From assembly GCA_002401345.1 (NCBI GenBank), contig NVSU01000001.1:68476-132475 (forward strand): 64,000 bases of DNA, given 5' to 3'. Source of the stretch: Candidatus Wolfebacteria bacterium. Lineage in GTDB: Bacteria; Patescibacteriota; Minisyncoccia; Phycocordibacterales; NVSU01. Under the pieces are notes generated by a model. That model had not been told where the DNA came from. It did no database searches and worked only from the letters and a program-made list of their open reading frames with translations. Below are positions 15,642 to 48,972 of the stretch, piece after piece. Both the position numbers and the translations under genes were made by a program. How positions within the stretch are numbered: the stretch's first letter is position 1; the number at the start of each line of letters is the position of its first letter.

Positions 15642-15842
15642 ATATAATACAAACACAAAAAAAGCGCCGCACTGTTAATCACAATTACGACGCTTTTCAT
15701 ATTTTGTTAGTTTAATTGTATCAATTCACAGTTTAATTGAAAGATAGAAATGTGGATAACTTTCAACGTACTTTCTACACGACCCAATTAAACTACTGTG
15801 ATAAAATTAGTAGGCGTCATAATTGTGAGTTACTTCAATATT

Positions 15843-17375
15843 ATGACGTTTTTACATGTATTTAAAAAAAATTGCATTATTTCAATTCTTGTACTCTTGC
15901 TGTTGAGCTGGGGGATATTCTTAAGATTCCACAATCTGGGACAGTCATCATATTGGATGGATGAAGGATATTCAGTAAATGCGGCACTCTCCACAGCAGA
16001 GAAAGGATATCCATTTCTTGATTCAGGGATGACCTACGATACACATCTGCCGAGCACGTACGCAATTGCCGGATCAGTAAAATTGTTTGGTGAATCAAAC
16101 ACTTCGACACGCCTTCCATCGGTTATTTTTAATATACTATTCCTTGCTACTATATTTTTATTCACCAAAAAGTTTTTTGGGATAAAAACTGCACTTCTTA
16201 CAACTTTATTTTTGACGTTTTCATATTGGGAAATCGGATGGGCTCGACAAGCAAGAAATTATGCGCTCTTTCAGCTCTCATTCTGGCTTTCTCTTTATTT
16301 CTTCTGGCAACTGCTCTATAACACACGAGTAATAAAGTATGTGGTACCGTGGATTATATTTTCATTTCTCACTTTCTTTACACATCGTCTAGGCCTTTTT
16401 CTTTTGCCTATCTATCTTATTTCTTTTGTAGTAGTGCAATGGGATCATCTCAAGAAAAACTGGTTACATTATTTATTCGGTGCACGCTCAATATATGTAT
16501 ATATATTTACCCTTTTAATATTCATTATCTTTGGAGGAGGAGTATGGAATACAATAAAAGAATCTCTCTCACTAAAAATATTTTATTTACCACAGTATCT
16601 AGCATTTATAAAAAATAATTTCCTGCTTGTGATAATTCTCGCGCTTTCTTCTCTCGCATTATATTTCAAAAACAAATTAATTCGTCAAAAAATATCCCTT
16701 CTTCTGATTGTCTATATAGTTCCATTAGTGATTATTTCTTTTTTTATCCTTCTCTCGGGTCATCGTTACCTTTTCCCTGTTTTACCTGCGCTTTATATTT
16801 TAAGTGCACTTACATTTGTATATATATGGGAAAAATACAGAAATATTTTTATACGAATCGGAATCTCTGTGGCAGTAGTGCTTATGATACTTTTTTCAAA
16901 GGAGTTCCAGTTTATGCCACGCACATTCTTTCCCCTTGAATCAAATCGTACACCTATCGAATTGGGACAAAAAAACAAGGCGTCGCAAAATTATTATATT
17001 TATACTCCCCAGCCTGACTGGAATAACGCATATTCCTTTATCAAAGAACGCAACACACAGGACGATATTATAATCTCAGTTCAACCAGTCTTTAATAAAT
17101 TATACTTAAATGATGCAGGGTACTGGATAGCATATTCACTCAGTGACAAATCTACACCTCCAATGTCCGATTTCTATGTAGGAGCTCACACTATACAAAA
17201 TCTTACAGAGCTCACACAACTCACTCGCAATGAACATGGGTTTATTATTTTAGACTTTCTTTCAATGGACAACAGAATTGAGCAACACATTCTTGAATAT
17301 ATACATGAACATATGGAACTTGTATACAAAAAGGAAACAAACTACTGGTCGCGAATATGGATATATCGTTTTTGA
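15843..17375 (+). CDS. GT39/GT83-type polytopic membrane glycosyltransferase (PMT / ArnT-like, polyprenol-phosphate-sugar dependent)
   Basis: 525-aa ORF. YWMDEGYSVNAALSTAEKGYPFL...SYWEIGWARQARNYALFQL. More than 10 TM segments. The annotated start was moved to the ATG at 15843 because 15798-15842 overlaps the repeat element. Confidence 0.65.
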   Translation: MTFLHVFKKNCIISILVLLLLSWGIFLRFHNLGQSSYWMDEGYSVNAALSTAEKGYPFLDSGMTYDTHLPSTYAIAGSVKLFGESNTSTRLPSVIFNILFLATIFLFTKKFFGIKTALLTTLFLTFSYWEIGWARQARNYALFQLSFWLSLYFFWQLLYNTRVIKYVVPWIIFSFLTFFTHRLGLFLLPIYLISFVVVQWDHLKKNWLHYLFGARSIYVYIFTLLIFIIFGGGVWNTIKESLSLKIFYLPQYLAFIKNNFLLVIILALSSLALYFKNKLIRQKISLLLIVYIVPLVIISFFILLSGHRYLFPVLPALYILSALTFVYIWEKYRNIFIRIGISVAVVLMILFSKEFQFMPRTFFPLESNRTPIELGQKNKASQNYYIYTPQPDWNNAYSFIKERNTQDDIIISVQPVFNKLYLNDAGYWIAYSLSDKSTPPMSDFYVGAHTIQNLTELTQLTRNEHGFIILDFLSMDNRIEQHILEYIHEHMELVYKKETNYWSRIWIYRF

Positions 17376-17418
17376 TTCTTTATCTTGCAGATGATACAAT
17401 TTACAGTGCGTCGTAATA

Positions 17419-19368
17419 GTGATTTATTTTACTATTATGGTGCTTTTTTTGTGCCCATTTTACCTCATGGTGAACAAAAATATTCCTACAACTAAAAAAT
17501 CTTCAAAGAGACTATTAAGAAAAAGAAAACGCGTATTCCTTCATCGCTTTGGCGCTATTTTAATTATAGTAATCCCGATCATAGTGATTTCTTTTTTAGG
17601 AATACAGCTTTACCAAGCGTCTGCATACAATGCATTCTATACAACAGACCTTAATCCCGAGACATTCAAAAATGATAGTTTGCCTCTTTATATTAACGAA
17701 GATCTAAATAAAGAAATATTTGGACAAGGTGGGGTGATAGATAATGAATATTATTTCGAAATAATCGGTTCACCTTTCGAATTCATCTGGCAACCAGAAG
17801 AATTTCCAATAAAAAAGGATGTACAAGTCAGCGCTACATTCAAAGGAAATACTTTTTTGGAACTTGGTATTCCCTGTATAGCATGCAACCAAGAAAACTA
17901 CAGATGGGAACCTTTTTATGATCCTCTTAAAAATCCTCCGGCAATAACTACATTATTTGAAAAGAATACAGAAAATAACTATACGAAGAATAGTATTACA
18001 GAAATAAAAAACGAGCTCGTCGGATCGCAGGTTTTTTATGTATATCTAGAAGACAAGATTGATCTTTCTATTACCAAGATTTCATTAAATCCACACAGTG
18101 CTGAAAAAAATATCCTGGTCACTCTAACTAATCTTGAAGGAACCATAGTATGGGAGGAGGAGCTCCCGCATGTTACGCATGAAGAAACATCATTCCGCTT
18201 TGAGGCAGCGCTTGAAGAAAAAGGTATCTATAAACTCTCTATAGTAAATTCTTTAGATGATTTCATTATCACTAACCTTTCTATTAATACACATGCCATT
18301 GCTTCAGCTGATACTATTCATTCAAAGATTACTATAGACACATCTATAGATGAATGGATCACTATCTCAAAACAAATAGAGGGGGAATTTAAAGACAAAA
18401 ACGCTATTAATTTTGTACTTAGAAATCAAATTTTAGAAGAAAAAAAGAAAAAAGAAGACATAATAAGAGAAAGGGGCTTTACGATAGCACAAGAGTTCAA
18501 AGATTTTTTGATTTGGAAAAAAGATAATGCACCAGTGCTTCATTTTGTAGTTCCAGACGAAGAGAGCACACTTCGCGAATTCCTTGCGCTCTCTATTCCT
18601 GAAAAAAGAGTGGTCGAGGAAAATAAAGATCTTGGAATTGTGCGGGACGCACCAGAGGGATTTGCGACAACACCGACAACCGTCAACACCGACTTGCGTG
18701 GTAATCACTCTTTTTATCTTTACCTCTCTGATTCATTTAGTTCCGACATATCAATAAAAGAACTCAATTGGTATGATGGCGCTGATGATATTACGATAAC
18801 GCTCAGTACAAAAAATGAAGGGAGGAAATTATGTCAAAGAACATTTTTTGACGACGGAAATGTCTCAACAGACAAACAAGAACATACAACAACTATTCCC
18901 TTTGAATGTAATAATCTTACTCCCGGAATATATCTTTTATCTTTCGAAGAGTCCTCATCAAAGAAAGATTATGTGATAAACAAACTCACAGTTAACACAA
19001 ATAAAATAATAGTTAAAAACGGTATTCTTAATTTACAACCACTACCACTCTACACTAATGTAACCACCGAAAAAAATATTAAATTCTACTACTGGCATGA
19101 GAACCTAGATCAAGAGATCACATTCACTTCAAAAGGAAAACAATTATCACTTTCATTAACAAAAGAAGATAAGGGTCGAGGAGTTTTTTATCCTTTGACA
19201 GCTGGATTATGGGAAATATATGCCTCTAAAGGTAATGCTGTTATTTCAAATGCTGATTTCGCTTTTTCACCTGAACATTGGTTTATCGTTGAACCGGATT
19301 ATATTGTTACAAAAAAAATAGATGACTCCACAATACTACTTAAAAATATAGCGATCACAGTACTATGA
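17419..19368 (+). CDS. Large membrane-anchored extracytoplasmic protein, hypothetical
   Basis: 649 aa with an N-terminal TM. 4-nt overlap with the next gene. The start may be the internal M at MVNKN. Confidence 0.45.
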   Translation: MIYFTIMVLFLCPFYLMVNKNIPTTKKSSKRLLRKRKRVFLHRFGAILIIVIPIIVISFLGIQLYQASAYNAFYTTDLNPETFKNDSLPLYINEDLNKEIFGQGGVIDNEYYFEIIGSPFEFIWQPEEFPIKKDVQVSATFKGNTFLELGIPCIACNQENYRWEPFYDPLKNPPAITTLFEKNTENNYTKNSITEIKNELVGSQVFYVYLEDKIDLSITKISLNPHSAEKNILVTLTNLEGTIVWEEELPHVTHEETSFRFEAALEEKGIYKLSIVNSLDDFIITNLSINTHAIASADTIHSKITIDTSIDEWITISKQIEGEFKDKNAINFVLRNQILEEKKKKEDIIRERGFTIAQEFKDFLIWKKDNAPVLHFVVPDEESTLREFLALSIPEKRVVEENKDLGIVRDAPEGFATTPTTVNTDLRGNHSFYLYLSDSFSSDISIKELNWYDGADDITITLSTKNEGRKLCQRTFFDDGNVSTDKQEHTTTIPFECNNLTPGIYLLSFEESSSKKDYVINKLTVNTNKIIVKNGILNLQPLPLYTNVTTEKNIKFYYWHENLDQEITFTSKGKQLSLSLTKEDKGRGVFYPLTAGLWEIYASKGNAVISNADFAFSPEHWFIVEPDYIVTKKIDDSTILLKNIAITVL

Positions 19369-21158
19369 TCCGTGAAATGCTTAAAAATAAATGGGGTCCT
19401 ACCCTTTTGGTGTATGTGGCAATCTATCTGATTGTCATTTTTTTAGATGTACGACTTGGTGGCTTTTTGAGCTTTTATTTTAATCCTGTAATTTTTCATT
19501 ATCTTTCACTTATCATTATTATTTCTCTTTTTTATGGTGTCACAAATGAATGGAAAAAAAATACACAGATAGCAAAAAGCCTAAAACATTTCGATGACGT
19601 GGATCAAAAAGAAAACAATCGACTATACGTTATACTATTGCTTATTATTTTTGCCCTGGGAACATTCCTAAGACTCTATCACCTAGGGGAACTTTCTCCT
19701 GCAGGAGATGAATATAGACACCTTCTTGCAATGAAACGTTTTTTAACTGATGGTATATTTGGCTACACTACCTCATCTATCACAACTCTTATTATCACGG
19801 GCGTAAAAAAAATTACCACAAGTGATTCACTATTTTTGCTTCGATTACCGTTTGCGCTTCTCGGATCACTTTCAATTTTACTTTTTTATGCGATCGGGAA
19901 AAAAATAGCAACTAGGCAAGTTGGTTTAATTGCAGCGTATCTTTTCGCATTTCTACCGCTTGCAGTAGGTCTTTCGAACTACATACGTGGGTATGAAATA
20001 GCGCTTTTTGTCTCCCTTGTTGCGATATATTTTCTATTTTCGCCTTATATAAAAAATCTATACTTCAAAATAGTTCTCTTTATTCTTAGTTTAAAGCTTA
20101 TTGCGTACTTAAATTCTGATCAACGTTTTGATGCAATGGTTATGTTCTTTGCTATCTTTGCACTCTTCTATGGAGGTCTCATGTTTATAGACGAGATTAT
20201 AAAAAATAAGCGATGGAATAACATCATCAAAATTACCGCCCCTTTTATTGCATTTGTTGCGGGAATTTCTATCATGCCACTTTTCTTTGAGTTTAGTTTT
20301 TCGAGGACAGTAGAATGGGGGTATCTTTTTTTAATTAATCATAGCTATTCCGATGTAACATGGTATTTTGAGATTATTCCGTTTATTGTGATAATATTTT
20401 TTATTATTAGTGCATTCTTTGCAAAAATTAAAAAGAAAAATGTCATCTATGCACTCTCTTTTACATTGATTTTTATCATCGCCATATTCATGTTTTATTT
20501 TGACGGACCAAAGCGATTTCAAGTACGCTATCTGTATCCCCTCTTTCCGTATTTCATCCTCCTTCTCTCCATTGGTATTTCCTCCGCATATTATATATTC
20601 AAAAGAATATTTAAGGTGGGAATAATAGAATACAGTATTGTCTCTGTCATTGTATTTATTACTATCTTTAGCCCTGTGAAAGCTTTTTATTTCACATTCA
20701 CGGAAACGAACGGAGAACACAGCAAACTAAATCAACTAACCTATTTACCAGACAAAGAACTTATAACATTTGTGAACGCTCACAATATCGATGTATCTAA
20801 AATCATAACCACGACACCGTGGGTTTTTGACTTTTATTATGACCAACCATTTTTAATGACAGGAGAACTTAATCAGTATGTGCACTTTCCCAAAGAATGG
20901 AATTATGAATTTGTGAACAGAACAAAGCTCTATAGCATTAGTGGTTTTCGATCTGAAGAAGAAATCAAAACAATAAATGAAATTATTGATACACGTGATA
21001 TAGAATATCTTATTTTCCATAGTCTGCCACAGCACTCAGATTACAGATATAGCTACGAGTACCCCCTTGAAACTATACGTGACACAGAGTTGGTAACTAT
21101 TATTGGAGAAAATAGTTCATATGGATATTACATATATAAAATCAATAAAGAATCATGA
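19365..21158 (+). CDS. Second GT39/ArnT-like polytopic membrane glycosyltransferase
   Basis: 597 aa. LRLYHLGELSPAGDEYRHLL with many TM helices. An extracytoplasmic C-terminal domain. Confidence 0.6.
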   Translation: MIREMLKNKWGPTLLVYVAIYLIVIFLDVRLGGFLSFYFNPVIFHYLSLIIIISLFYGVTNEWKKNTQIAKSLKHFDDVDQKENNRLYVILLLIIFALGTFLRLYHLGELSPAGDEYRHLLAMKRFLTDGIFGYTTSSITTLIITGVKKITTSDSLFLLRLPFALLGSLSILLFYAIGKKIATRQVGLIAAYLFAFLPLAVGLSNYIRGYEIALFVSLVAIYFLFSPYIKNLYFKIVLFILSLKLIAYLNSDQRFDAMVMFFAIFALFYGGLMFIDEIIKNKRWNNIIKITAPFIAFVAGISIMPLFFEFSFSRTVEWGYLFLINHSYSDVTWYFEIIPFIVIIFFIISAFFAKIKKKNVIYALSFTLIFIIAIFMFYFDGPKRFQVRYLYPLFPYFILLLSIGISSAYYIFKRIFKVGIIEYSIVSVIVFITIFSPVKAFYFTFTETNGEHSKLNQLTYLPDKELITFVNAHNIDVSKIITTTPWVFDFYYDQPFLMTGELNQYVHFPKEWNYEFVNRTKLYSISGFRSEEEIKTINEIIDTRDIEYLIFHSLPQHSDYRYSYEYPLETIRDTELVTIIGENSSYGYYIYKINKES

Positions 21159-22396
21159 ACTTCCTTCGAATAAAAATAAAAGAATATCTGGATAAAAATA
21201 AGTTCATGTCTTCTCTCTTTATTCATGGTATATGGATGACAATACGACAAGTGATTGTGCTAGGAAGTGGTCTTGCGCTCTCTATTGCTTTTGCACGACT
21301 TGCTACACAGGAAGTATTCGGACAGTATCAGCTCATCCTTTCAATACTCTCAGTTGTGTCAATTGTTTCCATACCTGGACTCAATATGTCTATATTAGGA
21401 TCAACGGCCCGTGGATTCGAAGGCAGCTTCACGCGCGCGGTGCGCACAAGCTTTCTCTGGAGTCTCATCGGTATTCCTGTGTTACTTGCTGTTGGTGGAT
21501 ACTATTATATATATGAAAATCCTACAGTAGGACTTGCATTTATGGCACTCTCTTTATTCTTTCCATTTCTCTACGCACCGAATACATGGGATTCATTCCT
21601 TCAGGGGAAAGAGCGTTTCGATGTTGCATCACGCTACTCATCAATTCAGGCACTCATAAATGCAGCCACAATAATAGCAATATTATTTTTATTTAAAGAT
21701 AATCTACTTCTTATTGTAGTGGCATATGCACTGACGCTCGCTTTCTTTAATATAGTCTGGTACAAAAAAAGTCTTCGGTATGTAGAAAATAAAAATGAAG
21801 ACAAGGAAACAATTCCCTATGGATGGTTTGTCACAAAAATACAAATTCTCTCACTGATTGCAGGTAATCTCGACAAGGTACTTATAGGAATATTTATAGG
21901 GCCTGTACAATTGGCGGTGTATGCAATTGGAATAAATTTTTCAAAAAAAATTCTTTATTTCGTAAAAAGCCTTCTCGGTGTTGCAACACCAACCATATCC
22001 AAGAAAAATACTGTGAGCATGAAACTCTACAGTAAGATTTTTATTCTTGCGACTATTTTTGCAGGAGCACTCTTTCTATTTATGCCGGTATTAATCCCAT
22101 TTCTTTTCTCGAACAAGTATGTTGATTCTATTTTGCTCTCACAACTCGTTGTAGCCTTTTTACCATTTTACATACTAAACATACTCTATAAAAACCATTT
22201 TCTCCTCTATTTAAAAAATAAACGTATCCTTTTCTATGAATCCATCATATTTCCTATCACAAAAATTCTTCTCATGATTCCACTCATCTATTTCTTCGGA
22301 ATTATCGGTCTTGCGTTCCTCATTGGATTCCAAAATATTCTTAATATGGCGGTGCTTTATCTTCTACACAAAAAAAACAAACAAGTGGTGAAATAA
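21155..22396 (+). CDS. Polysaccharide/oligosaccharide flippase (Wzx-like, MOP superfamily)
   Basis: 413 aa with about 12 TM helices. It sits in a glycan locus with a 4-nt overlap to the upstream gene. Confidence 0.5.
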   Translation: MNFLRIKIKEYLDKNKFMSSLFIHGIWMTIRQVIVLGSGLALSIAFARLATQEVFGQYQLILSILSVVSIVSIPGLNMSILGSTARGFEGSFTRAVRTSFLWSLIGIPVLLAVGGYYYIYENPTVGLAFMALSLFFPFLYAPNTWDSFLQGKERFDVASRYSSIQALINAATIIAILFLFKDNLLLIVVAYALTLAFFNIVWYKKSLRYVENKNEDKETIPYGWFVTKIQILSLIAGNLDKVLIGIFIGPVQLAVYAIGINFSKKILYFVKSLLGVATPTISKKNTVSMKLYSKIFILATIFAGALFLFMPVLIPFLFSNKYVDSILLSQLVVAFLPFYILNILYKNHFLLYLKNKRILFYESIIFPITKILLMIPLIYFFGIIGLAFLIGFQNILNMAVLYLLHKKNKQVVK

Positions 22397-22398
22397 TG

Positions 22399-22435
22399 AG
22401 CTCATAAGCTGAAAAAGTTTCAGCTTATGAGCTCA
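22399..22435. terminator. Bidirectional terminator, 17-bp perfect palindrome between convergent genes
   Basis: GAGCTCATAAGCTGAAA-aag-TTTCAGCTTATGAGCTC. Confidence 0.7.
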
Positions 22436-23047
22436 TTATTTCCTCACTTTAAGGATTATGTCCATACCGTAGCAAGAAAATGTATTTGAAAGATGTGCTT
22501 CGTAGAATTCTTGAGTACGTACATGAAGGTTTACAATTTTACCAAGAATATATTTTTTGAATACCATAGGAATGAAAAATGTGCCACTAAAATAAAGCCA
22601 TTGAGAGACAACCTCAAAATCTAGATCAGTGTAGAATGATGGCACCTGTCGCGTGAGCTTGTCTTGATTTTTTGAGTAATAATAAAATGTATAATATCCA
22701 AAAAATCGCTTATGAGTCGGATCAGAATAATAATACGGATTTGAAAAATGTGGGACAAATATATATATCATACCTCCGGGCTTCAATACACGGTGCATCT
22801 CTCTCATAAGTAAATCAAAATTATCAACGTGCTCAAAAAAGCTCTTGCTGTGTATTTCATCAACAGAATTATCAGGAGCAAACGATAATCCTTTCTCGAG
22901 GTCTGCAACAATATCAATCCCAGACAGTGGAAGCATATCGACAGTAATACGATCGGTACGAGAGGTAGGCCCGCTTCCCAAATCGAGAATAATCTTTTCA
23001 CCCTTTTCAATCTTATCCTTTATAATGTGATGTATTTGATTAGCCAT
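22436..23047 (-). CDS. Class I SAM-dependent methyltransferase
   Basis: LDLGSGPTS motif I. VLKPGGMIYIFVP. Confidence 0.7.
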   Translation of the reverse strand: MANQIHHIIKDKIEKGEKIILDLGSGPTSRTDRITVDMLPLSGIDIVADLEKGLSFAPDNSVDEIHSKSFFEHVDNFDLLMREMHRVLKPGGMIYIFVPHFSNPYYYSDPTHKRFFGYYTFYYYSKNQDKLTRQVPSFYTDLDFEVVSQWLYFSGTFFIPMVFKKYILGKIVNLHVRTQEFYEAHLSNTFSCYGMDIILKVRK

Positions 23048-23059
23048 AAATTTTATACA

Positions 23060-30480: not shown

Positions 30481-30521
30481 CAAAAAAAGCCGCAATTGCA
30501 AAAAAATCACAATTACGACGC
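30481..30521 (-). ncRNA. Conserved leader hairpin+U-tract element (family copy d)
   Basis: On the minus strand: GUCGUAAUUG-ugauuuuuuug-CAAUUGCGGC-UUUUUUU, with two G-U pairs. The same pairs would be C-A mismatches on the + strand. Confidence 0.4.
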
Positions 30522-30691
30522 ATGTACATTCTATCAATTCAAACTCATAAATGCAAAATTTAGTCTAATAACTCATAAAAAATGGTATTTTTAGAAAATC
30601 CTCGCATAGTAAAAAATATTGATCCTGTTATGTAAAATAACCAGAGGATGGGCTCCTGCTTTGTGCACAAATTCACTTTATGTATCATTAC

Positions 30692-35147: not shown

Positions 35148-35266
35148 TAAAAAGCGCCGTAATTGTGACCCCTAAAATTCCTAGAGGTGACGATCTTCAC
35201 ACACTTACTCCACCAACAAATGGGAAGAAATAGTCAAGAAAATCTATCACAATTACGACGCTTTAT
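35148..35266 (-). repeat. MITE-like copy of the leader-element family: 15-bp arms GCGCCGTAATTGTGA / TCACAATTACGACGC flanking about 80 bp
   Basis: The arms are inverted repeats of each other with one difference. That difference is a G-U pair on the minus-strand RNA but a C-A mismatch on the +. Confidence 0.45.
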
Positions 35267-39261: not shown

Positions 39262-41133
39262 TTAATTAAAATATTTCTTATACCAAAGATTAAGTGCCAT
39301 TAATGTCCAGAGTTTTTTTGAATTGTCTTTACCTCGAATATGGTCACTCAGTAACTTTTCGATTTTATCTTTCTTTATTATCTGTAATACGAGACCACTA
39401 GTATCTAATACCTTCTCTTTTACATAGTCCCTCAATTCATTTCTAAACCAATACACAATGGGTATGCCGAATCCTTGTTTTTTTCTATATAAAATAGATT
39501 TTGGCAAGTATTTCTGCAACATTTTCTTAAAGATTTTCTTACCCTCATTTATATCAGTTTTATGTGTCCATGGAATCTGTGCGACAGTACTCACAAAATC
39601 AAAATCGAGCATCGGAGCTCTAACTTCAAGTGAATTTTTCATGCTCGCCATATCAACCTTGACATTAATGTCATCGGGAATATAGCTGTTAAAATCAAGA
39701 TACAATATCTTATTAACATCATTTATTTTTTTGTTATGTAGGATTTTTTGAAACGTATTCTTACTCAAAACAAGTTTTTTCTTAAAGTCCTCTCTATAAC
39801 ATTCTTCTTTAGTACGTTCATCAAAATATGTCGTGTAATTAAAATGTCGCGTCGCACTGTCTTTATTTACTGTTCTTATAAAGATAGAGAGTTTGTCGAG
39901 GAAGTCTACCGACAATACTTTACTGGCATATTCAATAATCCCCAATAAGGGATGGAGTACTTGAATAAACCTTCCATATCTTTGAACAAAGACATGTCGC
40001 CTATGCTTATCATAGCCACCAAAATTTTCATCTCCACCGTCTCCAGAGAGAGCCACTGTTACATGTTCTTTTGTTAATTTCGACAAAATAAACGTCGGCA
40101 ATTGAGAGCTATCAGCATATGGTTCTTCAAACTGATGTATGAGACCTTCAATATGCTCAAGTAAATCTTGCGATTGTACTTTAAATTCTTTATGGTCGGT
40201 ATTATACAGCTTCGCAACCTCTCTCGCATACACACTTTCATCAAATCCCTCTTCATCAAAAGAAATAGAGAATGTTTTAAGTTTCTTGGTATAACGACTT
40301 GCAAATGCGACAATGGCGCTACTGTCCACCCCACCTGAAAGAAATGCTCCTAAGGGTACGTCTGAAATCATCCTTCTTTTTACTGACTCTTTAAGTTTAT
40401 CTTCAATAATTGACATCCACTTCTGCTTAGATACATTGAGTTTTTCAGAATATTCTAAATCAAAATACTGATTTAGAAAAAAGTTATTTGTCTTTAAATT
40501 TAAAATAAAATAATGACCTTGTGGCAGTTTATAGATATTCTTAAAACCGGTTTTAGGCGCAGGTACATACTGAAGAGTAAAATATTCATCAATTGCTTCA
40601 AAATCAATTTCTCTTTTAATGTCATGCTCTAAAATTGCTTTTAATTCTGAACTAAAAATAAATTTATTTTTATCTCTATAATATTTAAGTGGTTTTTGAC
40701 CAAATCTATCACGGGCTCCGAATAATATTTTTCGTTGCACATCGTATATCACAAATGCAAACATTCCATTAAAGTCCTGTACGCAACTAATTCCTTTATC
40801 CAAATACGCTGCAGCTAACACTTCTGTATCAGTACTTGAGGTAAATGTATATCCCTTCTTCTCTAATTCTTTGCGCATTTCTTTGAAATTATAGAGTTCT
40901 CCATTATATGTGACTACGACTCTCTTACCTTTATGCACATAAATCATAGGCTGATGGCCTTTTTGAGATAAATCGACAATAGACAATCGAACATGCCCAA
41001 GACCAACATTTTCATCTAAAAAAACACCCTGATCATCGGGTCCGCGATAAGAGATTTTTTCATTCATTGCTCTAATCTCCTTGTCGCTTATTTTTTCACT
41101 ATTCAATTTAACAATTCCATTTATTCCACACAT
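39262..41133 (-). CDS. asnB: Asparagine synthase (glutamine-hydrolysing) family amidotransferase
   Basis: MCGINGIV N-terminal nucleophile. SGGVDSS PP-loop. The start is set at MCG (41133) rather than the ORF extension. Confidence 0.85.
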   Translation of the reverse strand: MCGINGIVKLNSEKISDKEIRAMNEKISYRGPDDQGVFLDENVGLGHVRLSIVDLSQKGHQPMIYVHKGKRVVVTYNGELYNFKEMRKELEKKGYTFTSSTDTEVLAAAYLDKGISCVQDFNGMFAFVIYDVQRKILFGARDRFGQKPLKYYRDKNKFIFSSELKAILEHDIKREIDFEAIDEYFTLQYVPAPKTGFKNIYKLPQGHYFILNLKTNNFFLNQYFDLEYSEKLNVSKQKWMSIIEDKLKESVKRRMISDVPLGAFLSGGVDSSAIVAFASRYTKKLKTFSISFDEEGFDESVYAREVAKLYNTDHKEFKVQSQDLLEHIEGLIHQFEEPYADSSQLPTFILSKLTKEHVTVALSGDGGDENFGGYDKHRRHVFVQRYGRFIQVLHPLLGIIEYASKVLSVDFLDKLSIFIRTVNKDSATRHFNYTTYFDERTKEECYREDFKKKLVLSKNTFQKILHNKKINDVNKILYLDFNSYIPDDINVKVDMASMKNSLEVRAPMLDFDFVSTVAQIPWTHKTDINEGKKIFKKMLQKYLPKSILYRKKQGFGIPIVYWFRNELRDYVKEKVLDTSGLVLQIIKKDKIEKLLSDHIRGKDNSKKLWTLMALNLWYKKYFN

Positions 41134-41177
41134 AACAAATTTTGAGCGAAGCAATTACAAAATGGCAATCTAAACAT

Positions 41178-41217
41178 AAAAAAAGTCGCAATTGCAAAAT
41201 AATCACAATTACGACGC
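41178..41217 (-). ncRNA. Conserved leader hairpin+U-tract element (family copy f)
   Basis: Minus strand: GUCGUAAUUG-ugauuauuuug-CAAUUGCGAC-UUUUUUU. 10-bp stem with one G-U pair. Confidence 0.4.
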
Positions 41218-41251
41218 ACCCTCACCTTAGCAAGTATCTATTTGATAAGCA

Positions 41252-41280
41252 AATGCAGAAGGTTAAACCTTCTGCATTAA
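41252..41280 (-). terminator. Intrinsic terminator (ATGCAGAAGG-ttta-ACCTTCTGCAT)
   Basis: Perfect hairpin with a T-run. It lies downstream of 41299..42045. Confidence 0.65.
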
Positions 41281-41298
41281 TTTTATTTATTCTTTATT

Positions 41299-42045
41299 TT
41301 AGCCAAATGCCGCAACAACACGGTCTACTTCTTTTTGTATCTCCGGATCTTCAGGAGCACTACCCCACCAACCAGTATATATCATGACATTTTCCATTTC
41401 CTTTCCTTGGGTATTTTCTCTTCTTACAGTAAATAATGAAATGCGACTAAAGCCTCCAATTCCCCAACTGCTTGGTAGTGGAGAATGTTTCATTAAAAAC
41501 TGCAAATCACCTTTTTTAATCCCAAAAAAATCAGCACCTTCAGAATCAAGGTATGTTTCTATTCCGAAGACCTCAAAACCCATTTCTTCAGCCAGATCGG
41601 AGCGCTTATTTTTGAATTCAGATTCAAAAAATATCTTTTTAGCTAAACCTATTCGGTATTGCTCTATTGATCCGACTTTGTTTTTTAGGTCCTTAATTTC
41701 CTCCTGATTTTCACTCTCTCCTTCTATTTCCAAAGCTATAATTTCATCAGACAATTCTCTTTCTGTTTTAACTTTTTCCAAATATTCTTCATCTATTTTA
41801 GCTTTTGGAAAAACATCTTCTATTGTTTTAATTCCTATTTCTTTTACGAGACCAACCCTCTCATTAAGACCACCGTTCATCTCATCTCTATACCTAGTAA
41901 CTTCTTCTTGGTATTCAGCAATATTGTTTAGAGGATCATGACCAAGATGCCATTTCTTATACCTCTTAGTGATTTCAATAGCTTTTTCCAGAGCTTTTTC
42001 ATAAAGCTTCTCAGGGCTTTGTTCTGATGATGATAAATTTTCCAT
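41299..42045 (-). CDS. Hypothetical acidic protein
   Basis: 248 aa with no recognisable motif. Confidence 0.4.
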   Translation of the reverse strand: MENLSSSEQSPEKLYEKALEKAIEITKRYKKWHLGHDPLNNIAEYQEEVTRYRDEMNGGLNERVGLVKEIGIKTIEDVFPKAKIDEEYLEKVKTERELSDEIIALEIEGESENQEEIKDLKNKVGSIEQYRIGLAKKIFFESEFKNKRSDLAEEMGFEVFGIETYLDSEGADFFGIKKGDLQFLMKHSPLPSSWGIGGFSRISLFTVRRENTQGKEMENVMIYTGWWGSAPEDPEIQKEVDRVVAAFG

Positions 42046-42170
42046 GATATTTATTTTTTAATTAAATTACCAATACTTCCATTCTTATTTCACTCTAACT
42101 TATCATATGCTAAAAAGTCAAGGGCTTCGAATCCATAAAAATCAGATTTCTACAGGAATATTTATCTTAT

Positions 42171-43334
42171 TCATTGAATACATTGAGATTTGTATATACG
42201 CATATAATCACGAGCTGCTCTTTTCCAACTCATCTGCTCAGCTTTTTTTCTACTATTTTTCTTCATTGTATCTAATAGTGTTTTGTCTCTATATAATCTC
42301 TGTAAACTCTCGACAATATCTCTATTCTTTCCTTTTCTTACGATAAAACCATTATTTTCTATCAATTCTTTTGTTCCTCCGACATTAGTTGTCACAATCG
42401 CCAGCCCAGAACTCATCGCTTCTAAAAGTGAGTTGCTCATTCCTTCATTAAGTGACGACAGAACAAATACATCTGCTTGTGTATAGTACTCACTCATCTT
42501 GTCATGTGATATTGCCCCCACAAATCTTACTCTTCTTTCAATACCAGCGCGTCTCACCTCTTCTTCGAGCCTTTCTTTTAAATCACCATCCCCTACAAGC
42601 ACTAATCTGCTTTTCTTATTTTTTTTATTAAAATCAATGAATGCCTGAATTAAATGAGTAATTCCTTTTCTTTTAATGAGTCGAGACGTTGAGAGTATTG
42701 TGAATACACCATGTGTCTGTGTACCCACTTTAAACTCTTGAGTATCAATTCCATTATGAATCACGTCAATGTCTTGCTGAGAGGAAGTGTGCTGTGCGAG
42801 CTCTTTTAATAATTTTGAATTCGCGATCACTGAATTAGAATTTTTCCAAATTTTTCTACTCAACCTCTTGAAAAAAAATGTATCAAGCCAAAAGAATCTT
42901 TTACTATAGAACGGAACATCACTTCCGCGCAGACTTACAATATATGGTAACCCCTCTTCCTGATTCACAGAACTTTTTAATGCGTGATAGGAAAGTTTCA
43001 TCGCAATAAAACCGCATGGGATTCCGAAAAATGCATGAATTAGATCGAATTGTTCGTTTTTTATTAATTTCCTACAAAACCAATAGGCTTTCCAACTGTA
43101 CACAAGTAAATCTTTCAAGCTCTGATAATGTATATTCCCACTTTTATTAACATCCAGGCGATAGATAGTGATGTGTGGCGCAAACATTTCTTTTGCATGT
43201 GCACCAACTGATGATGTTACCAGTGCAACTTCTATATCTTTTCTTTTAGAAAATTCACGCAATAAATAATATGTAGCATTTCCAGCTCCACCACCTAAGG
43301 GGGGAAATTCGTAATTGAGCATTAGTATCTTCAT
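42171..43334 (-). CDS. Glycosyltransferase family 1 (GT4)
   Basis: MKILMLNYEFPPLGGGAGNATYYL. C-terminal SLLEAMSSGLAIVTT. Confidence 0.75.
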   Translation of the reverse strand: MKILMLNYEFPPLGGGAGNATYYLLREFSKRKDIEVALVTSSVGAHAKEMFAPHITIYRLDVNKSGNIHYQSLKDLLVYSWKAYWFCRKLIKNEQFDLIHAFFGIPCGFIAMKLSYHALKSSVNQEEGLPYIVSLRGSDVPFYSKRFFWLDTFFFKRLSRKIWKNSNSVIANSKLLKELAQHTSSQQDIDVIHNGIDTQEFKVGTQTHGVFTILSTSRLIKRKGITHLIQAFIDFNKKNKKSRLVLVGDGDLKERLEEEVRRAGIERRVRFVGAISHDKMSEYYTQADVFVLSSLNEGMSNSLLEAMSSGLAIVTTNVGGTKELIENNGFIVRKGKNRDIVESLQRLYRDKTLLDTMKKNSRKKAEQMSWKRAARDYMRIYKSQCIQ

Positions 43335-43347
43335 AAATATTAATAAT

Positions 43348-43403
43348 CACAACATTCTCATATTCTCAAGAATGTGAGAATGTGAGAATGTTGTGAGAAT
43401 GTT
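43348..43403. promoter_or_regulatory. Operator-like palindrome plus tandem TGAGAATGT half-site repeats, immediately upstream of the GT4 gene start
   Basis: ACATTCTCATATTCT-caag-AATGTGAGAATGTGAGAATGTTGTGAGAATGTT. The same core is at 23060-23091. Confidence 0.5.
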
Positions 43404-43413
43404 TTTTAAAAAC

Positions 43414-43451
43414 AAAAAAAGTCGCAAAGCGAGTTAATCACTTTACGACGC
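43414..43451 (-). ncRNA. Conserved leader hairpin+U-tract element (family copy g) with compensatory substitutions
   Basis: Minus strand: GUCGUAAAG-ugauuaacucg-CUUUGCGAC-UUUUUUU. UAAUUG/CAAUUG are replaced by UAAAG/CUUUG and pairing is preserved. Confidence 0.4.
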
Positions 43452-43599
43452 ATATGTATTCTAGCAACTCAAACCCTGAAATGCAAAACTACGCCAGATT
43501 ACCCCTTAATCATTGACGTCTGTCCCATACCGAGATTGCCTCTGGTACTGGGGTCAATTGTTAAATGATTAAGGAGGAGCAAATAATTGAAAAATAAAA

Positions 43600-43632
43600 A
43601 AACCCGCGTTTTTTACAAAACGCGGGTGTATA
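43600..43632 (-). terminator. Intrinsic terminator (ACCCGCGTTTT-ttac-AAAACGCGGGT)
   Basis: Perfect hairpin. It lies downstream of 43654..44127. Confidence 0.65.
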
Positions 43633-43653
43633 AAAAGTATCTGACACATTTTT

Positions 43654-44127: not shown

Positions 44128-44203
44128 AATTTATAGTTTTTTTAATTTAAAGGAGTTATTCTGATATGCATCTTATCATATATGTCATATTTTGTCAATT
44201 TTT

Positions 44204-45169: not shown

Positions 45170-46179
45170 ACTGTTGTATTGCTCATCATTAGTGAATCTT
45201 CTTGTCTATACACATGAACACCAGATGATGATTTATTGTTTTTGATAATATCTTTAATGTCATATACTGTGTCCCGTGTTGAAGAAAAATAACTTTTTGA
45301 AAGAATGTCTGCCAAAAGACCAAATACAAAAAACTGCACTCCTATTAGAAGGCCAAACATAAAAAGTTGAGTGAGAAATGTATTTGATAAATCTACTGCT
45401 CTAAATAACTTGTTATAAAGAGACCATCCACCCGCAGCAAAAGAGATCGCAATCAAAAATAATCCGATTCCACCAAATAAATGCAAAGGACGAGACGCAT
45501 ATTTCTTCCAAAACCATACTGAAACCATATCAAGTATGCCCTTTATGCCTCTCCTCCAGTTATATTTTGTTTTCCCAGCAATTCTTGGACGATGATTGAC
45601 TTTACACTCTCCTATTTTGAAACCTTTTATCTTTAAAAGTGCGGGGATAAAACGATGCATCTCTCCTACAAGATCAACATGATCAAAACACTCTTTTTTG
45701 TAAACCTTTAATGTACATCCACTGTCATGAATTCCATCGTTGATTAAAAACTTCCTTATTGACGCAGCACACCTAGATGCAATTTTTTTACCAAAGGGAT
45801 CTTTACGATTTTTCCGCCACCCAGACACTACATCATAATTACCTTTTTGAAGCACATTCAATAGTTTAGGAATATCACGAGGATCATTCTGTCTGTCACC
45901 ATCCATTGTCACTATAAGTTCCCCTTGTGCTTCTTTTATTCCAGCATCCAATGCCGCTGTCTGTCCAAAATTTTTTCTAAAGCTGATTATTTTAATAGGA
46001 CTCAATGTTTTTATTATCTCTAGAGTACGGTCTGTTGACCCATCATCGATAAAAATAATTTCACAGGATTTGTTCATTTTTTTGAACACCTCTGAAATCT
46101 CTTCAAAAAGAAGGTACGAATTTAGTTCCTCATTATATAGTGGAACTATTACTGATAGATTTATTTTAGGCTTTATCAT
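45166..46179 (-). CDS. GT2 polyprenol-phosphate glycosyltransferase (DPM1/ArnC/GtrB-like) with C-terminal TM helices
   Basis: LSVIVPLYNEE...IIFIDDGSTDRT...TMDGDRQNDP. Two C-terminal TM segments. Confidence 0.8.
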   Translation of the reverse strand: MIKPKINLSVIVPLYNEELNSYLLFEEISEVFKKMNKSCEIIFIDDGSTDRTLEIIKTLSPIKIISFRKNFGQTAALDAGIKEAQGELIVTMDGDRQNDPRDIPKLLNVLQKGNYDVVSGWRKNRKDPFGKKIASRCAASIRKFLINDGIHDSGCTLKVYKKECFDHVDLVGEMHRFIPALLKIKGFKIGECKVNHRPRIAGKTKYNWRRGIKGILDMVSVWFWKKYASRPLHLFGGIGLFLIAISFAAGGWSLYNKLFRAVDLSNTFLTQLFMFGLLIGVQFFVFGLLADILSKSYFSSTRDTVYDIKDIIKNNKSSSGVHVYRQEDSLMMSNTTV

Positions 46180-46193
46180 AAAAATTGGGCAAA

Positions 46194-46230
46194 TAAAAAA
46201 CGCCGCCTGTGGTGATCACAATTACGACGC
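46194..46230 (-). ncRNA. Conserved leader hairpin+U-tract element (family copy h), 20 nt upstream of the GT2 start
   Basis: Minus strand: GCGUCGUAAUUGUGAUCACCACAGGCGGCGUUUUUU. Hairpin with G-U pairs plus a U-run. Confidence 0.35.
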
Positions 46231-46372
46231 TTTTTATATGTAGTTAATCTTTATAGTATACTTCTTGATCTAAATAGCAAATGATGACCTGTTAAAAATA
46301 TGTGAATAATCCAAAATAACCAGCTGCAATATGGCTCTTGGTGAAGATAGTGTACTACTATTGTTTTTAAAT

Positions 46373-48511
46373 CTACTTAAATGCATTACCAACCGATGCG
46401 CTCAATTGAGTGAAATTTACTTGAAGTCGAGCAACAAGCTGTGAGACAAATTCTATTACACCTGCCTTATCATTTCTATTATTTTTTTCTTTTTTATTAT
46501 TTTTTTTGCTTTCCCCTTCTCCATCAGCTTGCGTGTTCTGTTCTTTACCCTCTTCGTTGGAGCTTGGGCGAAGCGAGTCTGATTCGTCATTTTGTATAGT
46601 TTCTTCGAATTCTGAAGAGGATTCTTTTCCTTTTCTTTGTCTTTCTTCTTTCAAATCCTCAATGTTATTTTTAAAATCTTTCAAACTTTTTTTTGTTGTT
46701 CTTGCAAGATCACTCGCCTTTATATACTCCCCCTCGTCAATATTTGTTTGGATCTTATCAAGAAGTGTTATCAATGGCATAAGTATATCTGAAGGAAGTT
46801 CAATGCCCTCTTGAGTTGCCGTAGTAATTATTTCATCCTTTTCACCTTCAAGTTCTTGTAGAAGTTCTTCTGCTTCAGTTTTATGTTTTATATTTTCTTC
46901 TTTTATTTTCTCAATAGTTTGCTTAACATCCTCTAAGCTCTCTTGAGATTTTTGTGCTAAAATTTCTGATTCCTTATACTCTCCGTCTTCAAATGCAGAT
47001 TGAGCTTGCAAGAGAAGCGTGTCAGGTTCAGTATATAATTCCTGAGAAAAATCGACTCCTTCTTGTGTCGCGTCATTAATTATCTTACTTCTCTCTTTTT
47101 CTGATCGAATAATTTGTTCTTCAGACTTTTGCTTCTGTTTCTTCAATTCTTCTGTAATAGTAGAAACTTCATTAAAAGAGTGTTCTGTAAGTCTCGAAAG
47201 GATTTTTGCTGAGTCAAAATCTCCAACTTCAAATGCTGTGTGAGTTTGATTAAGTAAGGTAGTTGAATCGCTAAACACATCATCTGGAAGTTTTATATTA
47301 TTTTTATTTACTTCAGCAAGTATATCTGGCTTTCGTGTTTCTAATTTTTCAATCAACTCCCCTGCTTCTTTCTGTTCATCTACGATATCACCCACTAGCT
47401 CATCAATAGTTTTTTGAGCGCTCACAAGGTTCTCTTTTGCATTTTGTGCAAGTCGCTCAGCCTCTTCGAAATTCTCTGTATCAAAAAAAGATTGTGATCG
47501 TAATAATTCGTCACTGAATTCATCGAGAGTAAATAATGGAAGCTCGATTCCTTTTTTGTTGAACGTATCTACTAATTTTTGTTTTTCATCCCTTGCATCT
47601 TTAATAAGCTTTTGAGCTCTGTGCTCAACTTTCATTTCTTTGGCAATAAGATTTCTATTGCTCTTTAATACTTCTTTAATTTCCTCTATCTCTCTCTCAA
47701 TCTGATCTTCGAGAAGTATAATACTGGAAAGCTCCCTCTCGAGCTCTTCGTCGTCATCGGCTTGAAGTACCAGTGTGATCTGATCCTGAACGGAGCGTTT
47801 CTTATTTTTGAGTGACTGTTTCTCCTCTGTGAGGATTTGTGTAAATAATATCTCCGAGTCTTCAATGGTATCATTTAATTCCTTTGCAAGAGTAGTGACA
47901 TCCTCCCCTTTTTTCTTTTTAGTAGAGACAAGGTCAACCGCATTATTAAGGTTTTGCTTGAGAAATCTTTTTGCAAGTCCTATTTCCTTCTCTCTGTTTG
48001 CTGTACCTTTCTCATTGATAATTTTTTCAATTTCTTTAATTCTCTCACCTGCAAATTCAACTTCAAGTTTAGCCTTGGTCTCAGGACTCGCACTAAATAC
48101 AACTCTTGTTCTCTCACCTAGTATTTTAACGGGATGAAAAATATCTCCTGGTAAACTTTCTCGTGACGTCAACGCACTTCTCACAGGTGTATCAGTCACT
48201 GAAATGAGACCAACACCCAATGAAACTTGTTTGAGAATTTCCTGAGATGGCAAAAAGATTTCCGAAAAAGATGGAATATTCACTCTACCTTCGTTCTGAA
48301 TATTCTCAGTGGATGGAACAAGTCCTGTATGAAGTGGGACTTGATCAATAATTTGTTGAGGTGGTTGAAAAAGATCTGTAAAAAAATTAGCAGAAACAAG
48401 CTGGGGTGCAAAAAAGAATGCCCCCACAAGAAATAGCGGTATTAAAAACCCAGGAACAGAAGTAAATATATTAGATTTTTTCACGGGTAAAATAGTATTA
48501 TTCATATGCAT
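46373..48511 (-). CDS. Secreted, highly charged coiled-coil protein with 4-5 internal repeats of about 55 aa
   Basis: Signal peptide (..LVGAFFFAPQLVSA). Repeats of the form (I/V)(E/D)(L/F)(P/S)xx(I/L)...LLxxxQ(T/S)xF(E/D)xG(D/E)(F/Y)xx(A/S)xxLA... Confidence 0.45.
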   Translation of the reverse strand: MHMNNTILPVKKSNIFTSVPGFLIPLFLVGAFFFAPQLVSANFFTDLFQPPQQIIDQVPLHTGLVPSTENIQNEGRVNIPSFSEIFLPSQEILKQVSLGVGLISVTDTPVRSALTSRESLPGDIFHPVKILGERTRVVFSASPETKAKLEVEFAGERIKEIEKIINEKGTANREKEIGLAKRFLKQNLNNAVDLVSTKKKKGEDVTTLAKELNDTIEDSEILFTQILTEEKQSLKNKKRSVQDQITLVLQADDDEELERELSSIILLEDQIEREIEEIKEVLKSNRNLIAKEMKVEHRAQKLIKDARDEKQKLVDTFNKKGIELPLFTLDEFSDELLRSQSFFDTENFEEAERLAQNAKENLVSAQKTIDELVGDIVDEQKEAGELIEKLETRKPDILAEVNKNNIKLPDDVFSDSTTLLNQTHTAFEVGDFDSAKILSRLTEHSFNEVSTITEELKKQKQKSEEQIIRSEKERSKIINDATQEGVDFSQELYTEPDTLLLQAQSAFEDGEYKESEILAQKSQESLEDVKQTIEKIKEENIKHKTEAEELLQELEGEKDEIITTATQEGIELPSDILMPLITLLDKIQTNIDEGEYIKASDLARTTKKSLKDFKNNIEDLKEERQRKGKESSSEFEETIQNDESDSLRPSSNEEGKEQNTQADGEGESKKNNKKEKNNRNDKAGVIEFVSQLVARLQVNFTQLSASVGNAFK

Positions 48512-48778
48512 TTCTTACACTAATTATAGTATAACAAAGAAAACAATGATTAAATGTGCCCATAGTGGTGCTTTATTTTAGGATATCACACTACTGAATA
48601 AATACACATCATAAAAATTGAAATGCTAAAAAAGCTCATTTTTACATAAAAAAACTGCGATATACGCAGAGCCTCGTGTAGACAATATTAAAACTGTGAA
48701 TTATAAATTACCCCAACTCCCGAGACATCCAATGAATACCAAATAATGTATTTGATCTAAGTCAATAAAATCTAGAAA

Positions 48779-48807
48779 TTGACATAAATAATTAAATATG
48801 CTATAGT
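48779..48807 (+). promoter_or_regulatory. Near-consensus sigma70-type promoter TTGACA-17-TATAGT
   Basis: TTGACAtaaataattaaatatgcTATAGT inside a 650-bp gene-free region. Confidence 0.5.
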
Positions 48808-48840
48808 ATTAATCTATAAGAGGCACAGAATAAAAGCTTT

Positions 48841-48883
48841 AATAGAGCACGGGGTGTGATAATTGCGTCAACCCGTGCTCTAT
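48841..48883 (+). ncRNA. 12-bp stem-loop (AATAGAGCACGG ... CCGTGCTCTATT) about 30 nt downstream of the promoter. It is a candidate sRNA or a structured 5' leader of a small ORF
   Basis: Perfect 12-bp stem with a 19-nt loop. A U-rich stretch follows. The candidate 28-codon ORF (48886..48972) starts directly after it. Confidence 0.35.
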
Positions 48884-48885
48884 TA

Positions 48886-48972
48886 ATGCTTTTATTGTTT
48901 ATAGATAATAAAAAAGCGTCAATTTTGTGCTTAATCACAACAATGACGCTAGTAAAAGTATATCACATATAA
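48886..48972 (+). CDS. Candidate 28-aa hydrophobic small peptide MLLLFIDNKKASILCLITTMTLVKVYHI (speculative)
   Basis: ATG immediately 3' of the stem-loop. One predicted TM helix. No clear SD. Confidence 0.2.
   Translation: MLLLFIDNKKASILCLITTMTLVKVYHI

Follow-up and report, generated by a model that had tools for sequence, protein, structure and literature searches.

The ops element of the RfaH system (JUMPstart, enterobacterial polysaccharide operons) is read as a single-stranded hairpin in the non-template DNA (PMC11685472). In the UpxY/opsX system of the Bacteroides capsule operons, a hairpin-containing leader element of ~40 bp decides the progress of transcription; opsX is a locus-specific pause site that consists of a pause hairpin and a non-template hairpin with the sequence YGCGNAGCR, its variation from operon to operon allows the UpxY proteins of the individual loci to be distinguished, and upxY is the first gene of each operon (PMC11685472). 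In the case of LoaP, a hairpin in the nascent leader RNA is needed to pass the intrinsic terminators of long biosynthetic clusters, and this hairpin carries a UNCG tetraloop and is separate from a NusA-dependent terminator located further down the 417-nt leader (PMC12691694). Here, a 64-kb stretch of DNA with the features of a bacterium of the Candidate Phyla Radiation (CPR/Patescibacteria), positions 32276-96275 of TULL18-1 scaffold_49 (ENA ERZ23499216) and referred to as the window throughout, was analysed for a family of hairpin elements with a U-tract, nine copies of which stand at the heads of the transcription units of a surface-glycan locus and may act as a shared leader attenuator.

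CPR/Patescibacteria have tiny genomes with few recognisable regulators, and they need their cell surface for attachment to a host. To our knowledge, almost nothing is known about gene regulation in these bacteria. In classical protein-mediated attenuators, an alternative structure is formed by RNA that precedes the terminator or overlaps with it. An earlier inspection of the letters of the window (the original prediction) had proposed a family of at least eight hairpin and U-tract elements in the 5′-leaders of the glycan genes, controlled by antitermination. The present analysis was performed on the number, structure, position and distribution of these elements, on their likeness to described systems and on the explanations that compete for them.

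Materials and methods

The DNA examined comprised the window and 16 kb of extra sequence from the same contig, ~80 kb in total, of which ~47 kb flank the glycan locus. Two assemblies from other samples were 100% identical to the window and thus provided no microdiversity for comparison. Each element copy is delimited, on its sense strand, by the first position of the 5′ arm (G1) and the last T of the T-run. A covariance model, R1, was built from the nine copies. The covariance-model search, which the original prediction had suggested for the whole genome and its relatives, was run on the window, the extra 16 kb and a set of related loci, and gave no copies beyond the nine.

Results

The 16-mer GCGTCGTAATTGTGAT had nine matches with up to 3 mismatches versus 0.34 matches expected by chance, and none of 100 shuffled sequences reached nine. 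One of these matches is the 3′ arm of copy e, while copy g, which has a 1-nt deletion, was found by fuzzy search and with the covariance model; since copy g was added and both arms of copy e were counted as one, the family comprises nine elements (copies a to i), in agreement with the predicted minimum of eight. The palindrome at 48911-48949, previously listed as merely related, is present and turned out to be a full member (copy i, 52 bits with R1). R1 gave the eight short copies 42-58 bits, and no other site in the window or the extra 16 kb exceeded 21 bits, these lower matches being ordinary terminators. No copy was found by the R1 scan in the ~47 kb of flanking DNA, compared with nine in the 33-kb locus, so that the proposed tie of the element to the glycan locus was borne out.

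The nine elements span 15.6-49.0 kb. All are intergenic, rather than located mostly inside coding regions as would be expected of a randomly spreading repeat, and all point towards the downstream gene, as had been claimed. All nine delineated transcription units of the glycan locus start with an element. A gene for a 248-aa protein within the locus (41299-42045) apparently has its own internal promoter without an element.

Each element is built of a conserved 5′ arm, a variable loop (5-14 nt; 80 nt in copy e), a pairing 3′ arm and a run of T5-T7. Invariant positions occur only in the 5′ arm (G1-C5, T7 and G12-A15), and the conserved block usually reaches to GUGAUUA. Conservation of the sequence itself is therefore confined to the 5′ arm and the first bases of the loop (GCGUCGUAAUUGUGAUUA, ~18 nt), whereas loops, 3′ arms, spacers and promoter flanks have diverged. 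The 3′ arm is kept only in its ability to pair, with almost only A or G found opposite U and C or U opposite G. The element is a candidate for a new cis-regulatory motif in a poorly understood lineage.

The hairpin depends on the strand. Sense folds of the short copies range from -15.3 to -18.4 kcal/mol versus -4.2 to -14.1 kcal/mol for the antisense folds, and the z-scores of the sense folds of all nine copies lie between -3.2 and -7.7. The stems have G+C-rich basal pairs and an A/U-rich upper part, the predicted loops are AUUAA, GUUA, UUUAUU, UUUUU, UUAUU, UUAAC, AUCAC and AUUAAG, and the T5-T7 run begins 0-2 nt after the stem in 9/9 copies. Gene-end terminators of this genome, with folding energies of -16.7 to -20.9 kcal/mol and U-tracts, are in the same range. 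In form and stability the elements are indistinguishable from these and have the build of a canonical intrinsic (Rho-independent) terminator, termination itself being predicted.

In the alignment of the nine copies 86.6% of the cells are paired, a value that drops to 32-56% when the 3′ partner columns are slid by 1-3 positions. Two-sided changes were found at the pairs 6-34 (G-C to A-U in b and i), 8-32 and 11-29, and copy g has lost one base pair from both arms; the compensatory change UAAAG/CUUUG that had been noted in this copy is real and gives a 12-bp stem. G.U cells number 18-23 versus 2 A.C cells, and the latter are alignment artefacts of copy g. Due to the strand-specific stability, the excess of G.U pairs, the compensatory changes and the wobble-limited variation of the 3′ arms, a single-stranded hairpin is favoured over a duplex operator. 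These data support selection on a hairpin of the sense strand at the level of RNA or single-stranded DNA (ssDNA); the original claims of sense-only folding through G-U wobbles and of a terminal U-tract in each copy stand, and that of an RNA hairpin instead of a DNA operator is supported in so far as the strand specificity fits RNA or a DNA single strand and not a duplex operator.

Outside of the core, the sole conserved block in the alignment of the flanks is an extended -10 box, TGnTAnnnT, which ends 6-7 nt ahead of G1 in the copies b, c, d, f, g and i. It is preceded by a TTGC(A/T)T box 17 nt further up in d, f and g. In a, e and h a good extended -10 box is found 21-24 nt upstream, joined in a and h by a weaker hexamer at 7-nt spacing. 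Judging from these predicted promoters, transcription probably starts at or next to G1, and the hairpin would form the 5′ end of the RNA. Counted from this putative start, the T-run ends at +36 to +43 (+113 in e). An ECF-type promoter, with CGTC as -10 element, was considered and rejected by eye, as no consistent AAC was present as -35 element at 16-17 nt.

That the copies are leader elements and not gene-end terminators is indicated by three observations: the copies a and b face outward in a divergent intergenic region, each toward its own gene, with no upstream transcript there that would call for termination; ahead of f, g and i, the upstream gene has an ordinary terminator of its own; and six copies have the -10 box at fixed distance. 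The predicted placement of the hairpins in 5′-leaders is supported by the same observations. Between the T-run and the likely start codon lie 8-79 nt, and not 20-80 nt as first given, with the exceptions of copy b and copy i (398 nt). The only plausible ATG of the PMT_2 gene downstream of copy b (15843) is located inside the 3′ arm. It had been suspected that several open reading frames (ORFs) were artificially extended through the elements. This is plausible for the calls at 15700, 30529 and 41154, where Pfam domains and natural N-termini start past the hairpins; for the call at 15798 the N-terminal extension GVIINCELLQY is probably artificial, but the likely true ATG at 15843 still lies within hairpin b. 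The fixed -10 box, the restriction of conservation to the 5′ arm and first loop bases, and the four of nine copies that are the sole terminators of upstream operons are points that the original prediction had missed.

Although RfaH/ops, UpxY and LoaP had been named as precedents, each of them fails at least one defining feature in the comparison with this locus. The likeness to RfaH/ops lies in a short conserved leader element that marks a surface regulon for control at elongation or termination; unlike ops, the conserved element here forms the 5′ arm of a canonical terminator with which the transcript begins, and no NusG paralog was found in the ~80 kb. The ops sequence GGCGGTAGnnTG (12 nt) had 17 matches with up to 2 mismatches in the window versus 12.95 expected, none of them in a leader, and no Rfam match to JUMPstart was obtained at E<=5. 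With LoaP, a NusG paralog of Bacillota, the locus shares a small hairpin in the 5′-leader. However, the loops here are 5-14 nt long and A/U-rich instead of UNCG, the hairpin itself is the terminator with its U-tract, and while loaP is adjacent to its cluster, no ORF of >=100 aa with a NusG_N or KOW domain was present in or beside the glycan locus. As in the UpxY/opsX system, several surface-polysaccharide operons each have a leader element with a hairpin, but one shared terminator-type element heads all units here in place of a locus-specific pause site, and the first genes code for glycosyltransferases, AsnB, a dockerin-like protein and others, unlike the upxY and upxZ genes that come first in Bacteroides.

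The classical attenuators (RAT/BglG-LicT, PyrR, TRAP, ANTAR) resemble the element in that the 5′ part of a leader terminator overlaps a conserved binding sequence; they differ in that the terminator here seems to begin at +1, and no CAT-RBD, PyrR or ANTAR protein was found in the ~80 kb. The search for NusG paralogs and ANTAR proteins that the original prediction had called for was thereby run over this DNA without a find. In the Rfam scan the gathering score was reached by tRNAs only, and no match overlapped any of the nine copies at E<=5. REP/BIME and Correia-type repeats, which likewise are intergenic imperfect palindromes able to act as terminators or mRNA stabilisers, occur genome-wide, in both orientations and mostly downstream of genes; the elements described here are in sense orientation at operon heads in 9/9 cases, have a promoter at fixed spacing and are restricted to one locus within the ~80 kb. 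Integron attC sites (GTTRRRY/RYYYAAC, at cassette 3′ ends) differ from them as well, since the arms are GCGTCGTAATTG/CAATTGCGRC, promoters lie ahead and the units contain several genes, and no integrase was found in the ~80 kb. Judged by analogy, the element would act like a leader attenuator of a glycan regulon, yet it belongs to no described family.

The individual copies are listed in Table 1.

Table 1. Copies of the leader element in the window, their predicted extended -10 boxes and the transcription units that they lead. Folding energies are given in kcal/mol.
Copy	Position	Strand	Hairpin	U-tract	Sense fold	Antisense fold	R1 score (bits)	Predicted extended -10 box	Unit led	Remarks
a	15657-15693	-	GCGUCGUA...UGCGGCGC	U7	-18.4	-7.6	45.6		operon of dockerin-like protein, peptidoglycan (PG)-binding protein and two-component-system genes	divergent intergenic region
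b	15814-15853	+	G6->A / C->U compensatory pair	U5	-16.4		47.5	TGATAAAAT, 15799-15807 (+), ends 6 nt before G1	PMT_2 glycosyltransferase gene	
c	17408-17450	+	stem of 13-15 bp with three G.U pairs, U11->A / A->U compensatory pair	U7	-16.0	-5.9	53.3	TGATACAAT, 17392-17400 (+), 7 nt before G1; -35 TTGATT 17 nt upstream	operon of 649-aa protein, 597-aa protein and flippase	sole terminator after PMT_2 gene
d	30482-30521	-	GUCGUAAUUGUGA/UUGCAAUUGCGGC	U7	-15.3	-4.2	57.8	TGATAGAAT, 30528-30536 (-), 6 nt before G1; -35 TTGCAT, 17-nt spacing	9-gene operon, first gene a cytidylyltransferase-GT2 fusion	
e	35149-35261	-	16-bp closing stem of conserved arm and GUCACAAUUACGGCGC; arms 80 nt apart, insert folds into two sub-hairpins	U5	-49.8 (z = -7.7)	-29.7			GT8 operon	ATG 8 nt past U-tract
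f	41178-41217	-	arms as in d, U4-A in place of U4-G	U7	-15.9	-6.7	58.1	TGCTAAGGT, 41224-41232 (-), 6 nt before G1; -35 TTGCTT, 17-nt spacing	operon of AsnB, methyltransferase (MT), MT, GT4 and GT4	ordinary terminator ahead at 41278-41252
g	43414-43451	-	variant with one base pair deleted, UAAAG/CUUUG	U7	-16.7	-9.4	44.2	TGCTAGAAT, 43458-43466 (-), 6 nt before G1; -35 TTGCAT, 17-nt spacing	GT4 gene	ordinary terminator ahead at 43627-43602
h	46195-46230	-	outer stem GCGUCGU/GCGGCGU, slipped inner helix UUGUG/CACAG	U6	-15.7	-9.1	41.9		operon of GT2, epimerase and 157-aa protein	
i	48910-48949	-	helices GCGUCA/UGACGC and UGUG/CACA	U6	-15.8		52.2	TGATATACT, 48957-48965 (-), ends 7 nt before G1		ordinary terminator ahead near 49035-49010

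The 80-nt insert of copy e and the 400-nt region that follows copy i each occur only once in the 80 kb. Between hairpin g and the start of the GT4 gene, 13 nt before the ATG, a 20-bp palindrome of repeated ATTCTCA/TGAGAAT units is located (43348-43395), which looks like a protein operator or a second, unit-specific leader hairpin. Copy i is separated from the next gene, which codes for a DUF5667 protein, by 398 nt of highly structured non-coding sequence (48512-48910, minus strand; -120 kcal/mol, z = -8.4 versus shuffled sequences) that contains a 24-bp hairpin (48907-48827), a terminator-like CUGCG...CGCAG with U7 (48669-48655) and a TATAAT just before the gene. Copy i may thus head a separate structured non-coding RNA of ~300 nt. 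A strong promoter-like site on the plus strand, TTGACA-17-TATAGT with TG (48779-48807), points into this region. The loop of the 24-bp hairpin (48850-48885, minus strand), UUGACGCAAUUAUCACAC, is identical in 9/13 positions to the family 5′ arm GUCGUAAUUGUGA and may represent a mimic or the degenerate remains of a tenth copy. The action of this 5′-arm-like loop (GACGCAAUUAUCA) as a trans-acting RNA was rejected: its pairing with the 3′ arms, at -3 to -11 kcal/mol, was no better than that of shuffled loops.

According to Pfam scans of ~60 ORFs, the region from 15 to 49 kb is a surface-glycan and cell-surface locus with GT2, GT4, GT8 and PMT_2 glycosyltransferases, a flippase, many methyltransferases, AsnB, epimerases, a cytidylyltransferase, a dockerin-like protein and a PG-binding protein. 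It is bordered by housekeeping genes and tRNAs, and its G+C content is slightly below that of the flanks. The assignment to CPR/Patescibacteria fits a G+C content of ~35%, the presence of DUF5652, DUF5667, PilM and VKOR, and best homologs labelled as Patescibacteria; in NCBI the encoded proteins bear the name Candidatus Wolfebacteria bacterium (locus tag COB64). Where the plus- and minus-strand glycan operons converge, a perfect palindrome of ~23-25 bp (22392-22440, AATAATGAGCTCATAAGCTGAAA...) folds with -33 and -39 kcal/mol on the two strands and is probably a bidirectional terminator. Two defence genes were observed on the same contig, one for an AbiTii-family protein (58568-59314, minus strand) and one for an MmeI-like type IIL restriction-modification enzyme, the latter outside the window (L115, 12456-15506).

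The unit headed by copy a (9710-15643, minus strand) appears to continue from the dockerin-like and PG-binding proteins into signalling genes, with gaps of <=30 nt, which code for a response regulator, a PAS protein, a SpoIIAA/STAS-like protein and a PAS histidine kinase. If this apparent continuity holds, the signalling module would be under the same leader element. Just downstream of the unit lies a gene for a CspA-type cold-shock protein (66 aa, 8812-9012). Just outside the glycan locus, upstream of a receiver-only response regulator gene (9223-9603), a core-like site, GCGGTCGTAATTATAAG, with 3 substitutions and 1 insertion was observed at 9643-9659 (minus strand), without a 3′ arm or T-run.

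Relatives of the element were searched in several collections. The exact 16-mer gave 105 single, unrelated matches in 185,579 species genomes, with no genome having more than one, and 13 single matches in viral contigs; as none of these 118 occurrences was followed by a hairpin and T5, they are regarded as chance matches. A structured pattern gave 7 matches in metagenome contigs, a collection which apparently lacks the source sample, all of them by chance in G+C-rich or coding contexts. With the DUF5667 protein encoded beside the copies h and i as query, no homolog other than the query was returned. VKOR homologs were at most 54% identical, and the 3 loci examined contained neither the glycan locus nor the element. 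AsnB homologs were 61-77% identical (5 loci); at the 4 AsnB loci with upstream sequence the genes GT4-AsnB-MT-GT4 form tight, overlapping operons, and the fifth locus, on a contig of 2.9 kb, extends no more than 49 nt ahead of AsnB. The best covariance-model score on the 8 VKOR and AsnB loci was 15 bits. In the locus analysed here (41133-43334) the module is split by the acidic 248-aa gene, an ordinary terminator, a promoter and hairpin f, which suggests that leader elements were added as the locus broke into more units. As far as the data reach, the element family appears to be lineage-specific.

Discussion

The nine elements are best described as a shared promoter-proximal leader attenuator that is relieved by a putative antiterminator reading the conserved 5′ arm, a reading to which we assign about an even chance of being correct. 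Each of the nine units would start with an intrinsic terminator located at or a few nt from the predicted start, and by default the polymerase would release a transcript of ~40 nt, leaving the locus off or throttled. A trans factor would bind to the first ~18 nt, in the nascent RNA or in the non-template DNA of the early elongation complex, and would block the pairing of the 5′ arm or render the polymerase resistant to termination, whereby all nine units would be switched on together. A trans-acting reader is proposed because the 5′ arm is conserved in sequence while the 3′ arm is conserved only in pairing; moreover, a transcript starting at G1 would have no upstream RNA for an alternative fold, so that a trans factor would be required. 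Conditional or processive antitermination is plausible; that termination is conditional is inferred from the sequence, as are the factor, the termination and the start sites.

A more far-reaching form of this proposal is conceivable, although we consider it somewhat less likely than not: a minimal, hitherto undescribed regulon switch in a CPR bacterium, in which one dedicated factor, be it protein or RNA, would read the first ~18 nt (GCGUCGUAAUUGUGAUUA) of nine transcripts as RNA or on the non-template strand of a polymerase that has just escaped, and would block the terminator at +40. The locus, including its own two-component genes, would then be toggled as a block, and copy i may head an RNA of ~300 nt that belongs to the same circuit.

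Several points weigh against an attenuator of this kind. With a transcript start at G1, which leaves no room for an alternative fold upstream, the model would depend wholly on the putative trans factor, and no NusG_N/KOW, ANTAR or CAT-RBD domain was detected in the ORFs of >=100 aa of the window or in the genes called in the extra 16 kb; the original statement that no antiterminator gene is visible in the window was thereby supported. The nine copies are paralogs of one genome, so the covariation counts do not represent independent events, and no relative carrying the element was found in the genomes, viral contigs, metagenome contigs or homolog loci searched, which means that the evidence comes from one genome. 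In addition, four of the nine copies (c, d, e and h) also are the sole terminator of the upstream operon, and part of the function of the element could be plain termination. Transcription starts and termination are predictions only.

The elements might also be a constitutive module without any switch, in which the hairpin at the 5′ end protects the mRNA from 5′-end-dependent decay, the U-tract serves as an unstructured landing site for ribosomes on mRNAs that lack Shine-Dalgarno sequences and the hairpin insulates the unit from upstream read-through. The position of the hairpin at the predicted 5′ end, the distance of just 8-16 nt between U-tract and ATG in a, c, e and h, the lack of visible Shine-Dalgarno sequences and the role of c, d, e and h behind their upstream operons are in favour of such a module, but 16-18 nt of invariant 5′ arm beside a drifting 3′ arm, loop and flanks are left unexplained by it, since a stabiliser or insulator needs structure only, and a hairpin of gene-end strength followed by U5-7 would cut its own transcript, which is wasteful if never relieved. 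We regard this explanation as unlikely, if worth keeping in mind. That the elements are a selfish or neutral palindrome of the REP or MITE type, which carries an outward promoter and a terminator and has spread in a recently assembled glycan island, appears improbable. Such a repeat would account for the imperfect repeated palindrome with an internal length of 5-80 nt, for the slightly lower G+C content of the locus and for the tight GT4-AsnB-MT-GT4 operons of relatives without the element, from which it follows that the copies are insertions or innovations of this lineage. It does not account for nine of nine copies being intergenic, co-oriented with the downstream gene and each heading a transcription unit, for the asymmetry of the arms (G.U far in excess of A.C) or for a T-run that is one-sided in most copies; besides, no transposase or RAYT gene was found in the ~80 kb and no copies were found in the ~47 kb of flanks.

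A site acting at the level of DNA, with the 16-mer at +1 to +16 as an operator for a repressor or activator or as a site for a site-specific recombinase and the fold possibly an ssDNA hairpin as in attC, would agree with the fixed spacing to the -10 box, with conservation restricted to one arm and with the arrangement of the copies: the 5′ arms of a and b (15678-15693 and 15814-15829) are inverted repeats, 14/16 identical, around a divergent promoter segment of 120 bp, and the remaining copies stand between cassettes as direct repeats. The asymmetry of G.T wobbles is compatible with an ssDNA hairpin, too. A duplex operator, however, cannot explain complementary 3′ arms at variable distance, their variation limited to A/G and C/U, and the constant T-run; no helix-turn-helix regulator, integrase or invertase gene is present in or beside the locus, and attC sites are promoterless cassette 3′ ends with GTTRRRY cores, which are absent here. 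We consider a DNA site very improbable. Operators of the LacI/CRP type (AATTGTGA / TGTGA half-sites) were tried and rejected, with the second half-site absent or at variable distance. As an observation in its own right, the a and b arms are arranged like the borders of a promoter segment that can invert; no gene for a recombinase was observed. Hardly any credence is given to a translation-coupled attenuator or leaderless mini-ORF, where a ribosome on the 5′ arm would block the terminator: an ATG or GTG directly before CGTCGT is found in c, d, f and g (17406, 30523, 41219 and 43453; position -2), the peptides begin with MRRNCD or MRRKVI (MRRNCD..., and MRRKVINSLCDFFCF ending at a stop), and U occupies every third position of the conserved core, yet five copies have no start codon at this position (AAG, AGG, TAG), transcription is predicted to start on the G of the codon, the seventh nt after the -10 box, so that the codon would be lost, and a ribosome would need to be loaded and to have translated 5 codons by the time the polymerase arrives at +40. 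The starts before CGTCGT in c, d, f and g were also used by gene callers to extend real genes through the hairpins.

With almost no knowledge of gene regulation available for CPR bacteria, a single cis-element over a 33-kb surface locus would, if true, represent a compact means of co-regulation. The shared leader attenuator would extend the theme of post-initiation control of polysaccharide clusters (RfaH, UpxY, LoaP, EAR) to a new lineage, with an architecture that differs in that one hairpin, at the very beginning of the RNA, would serve as both recognition element and terminator. The element also gives a handle for finding its putative regulator, namely the 18-nt sequence as a bait and the covariance model.

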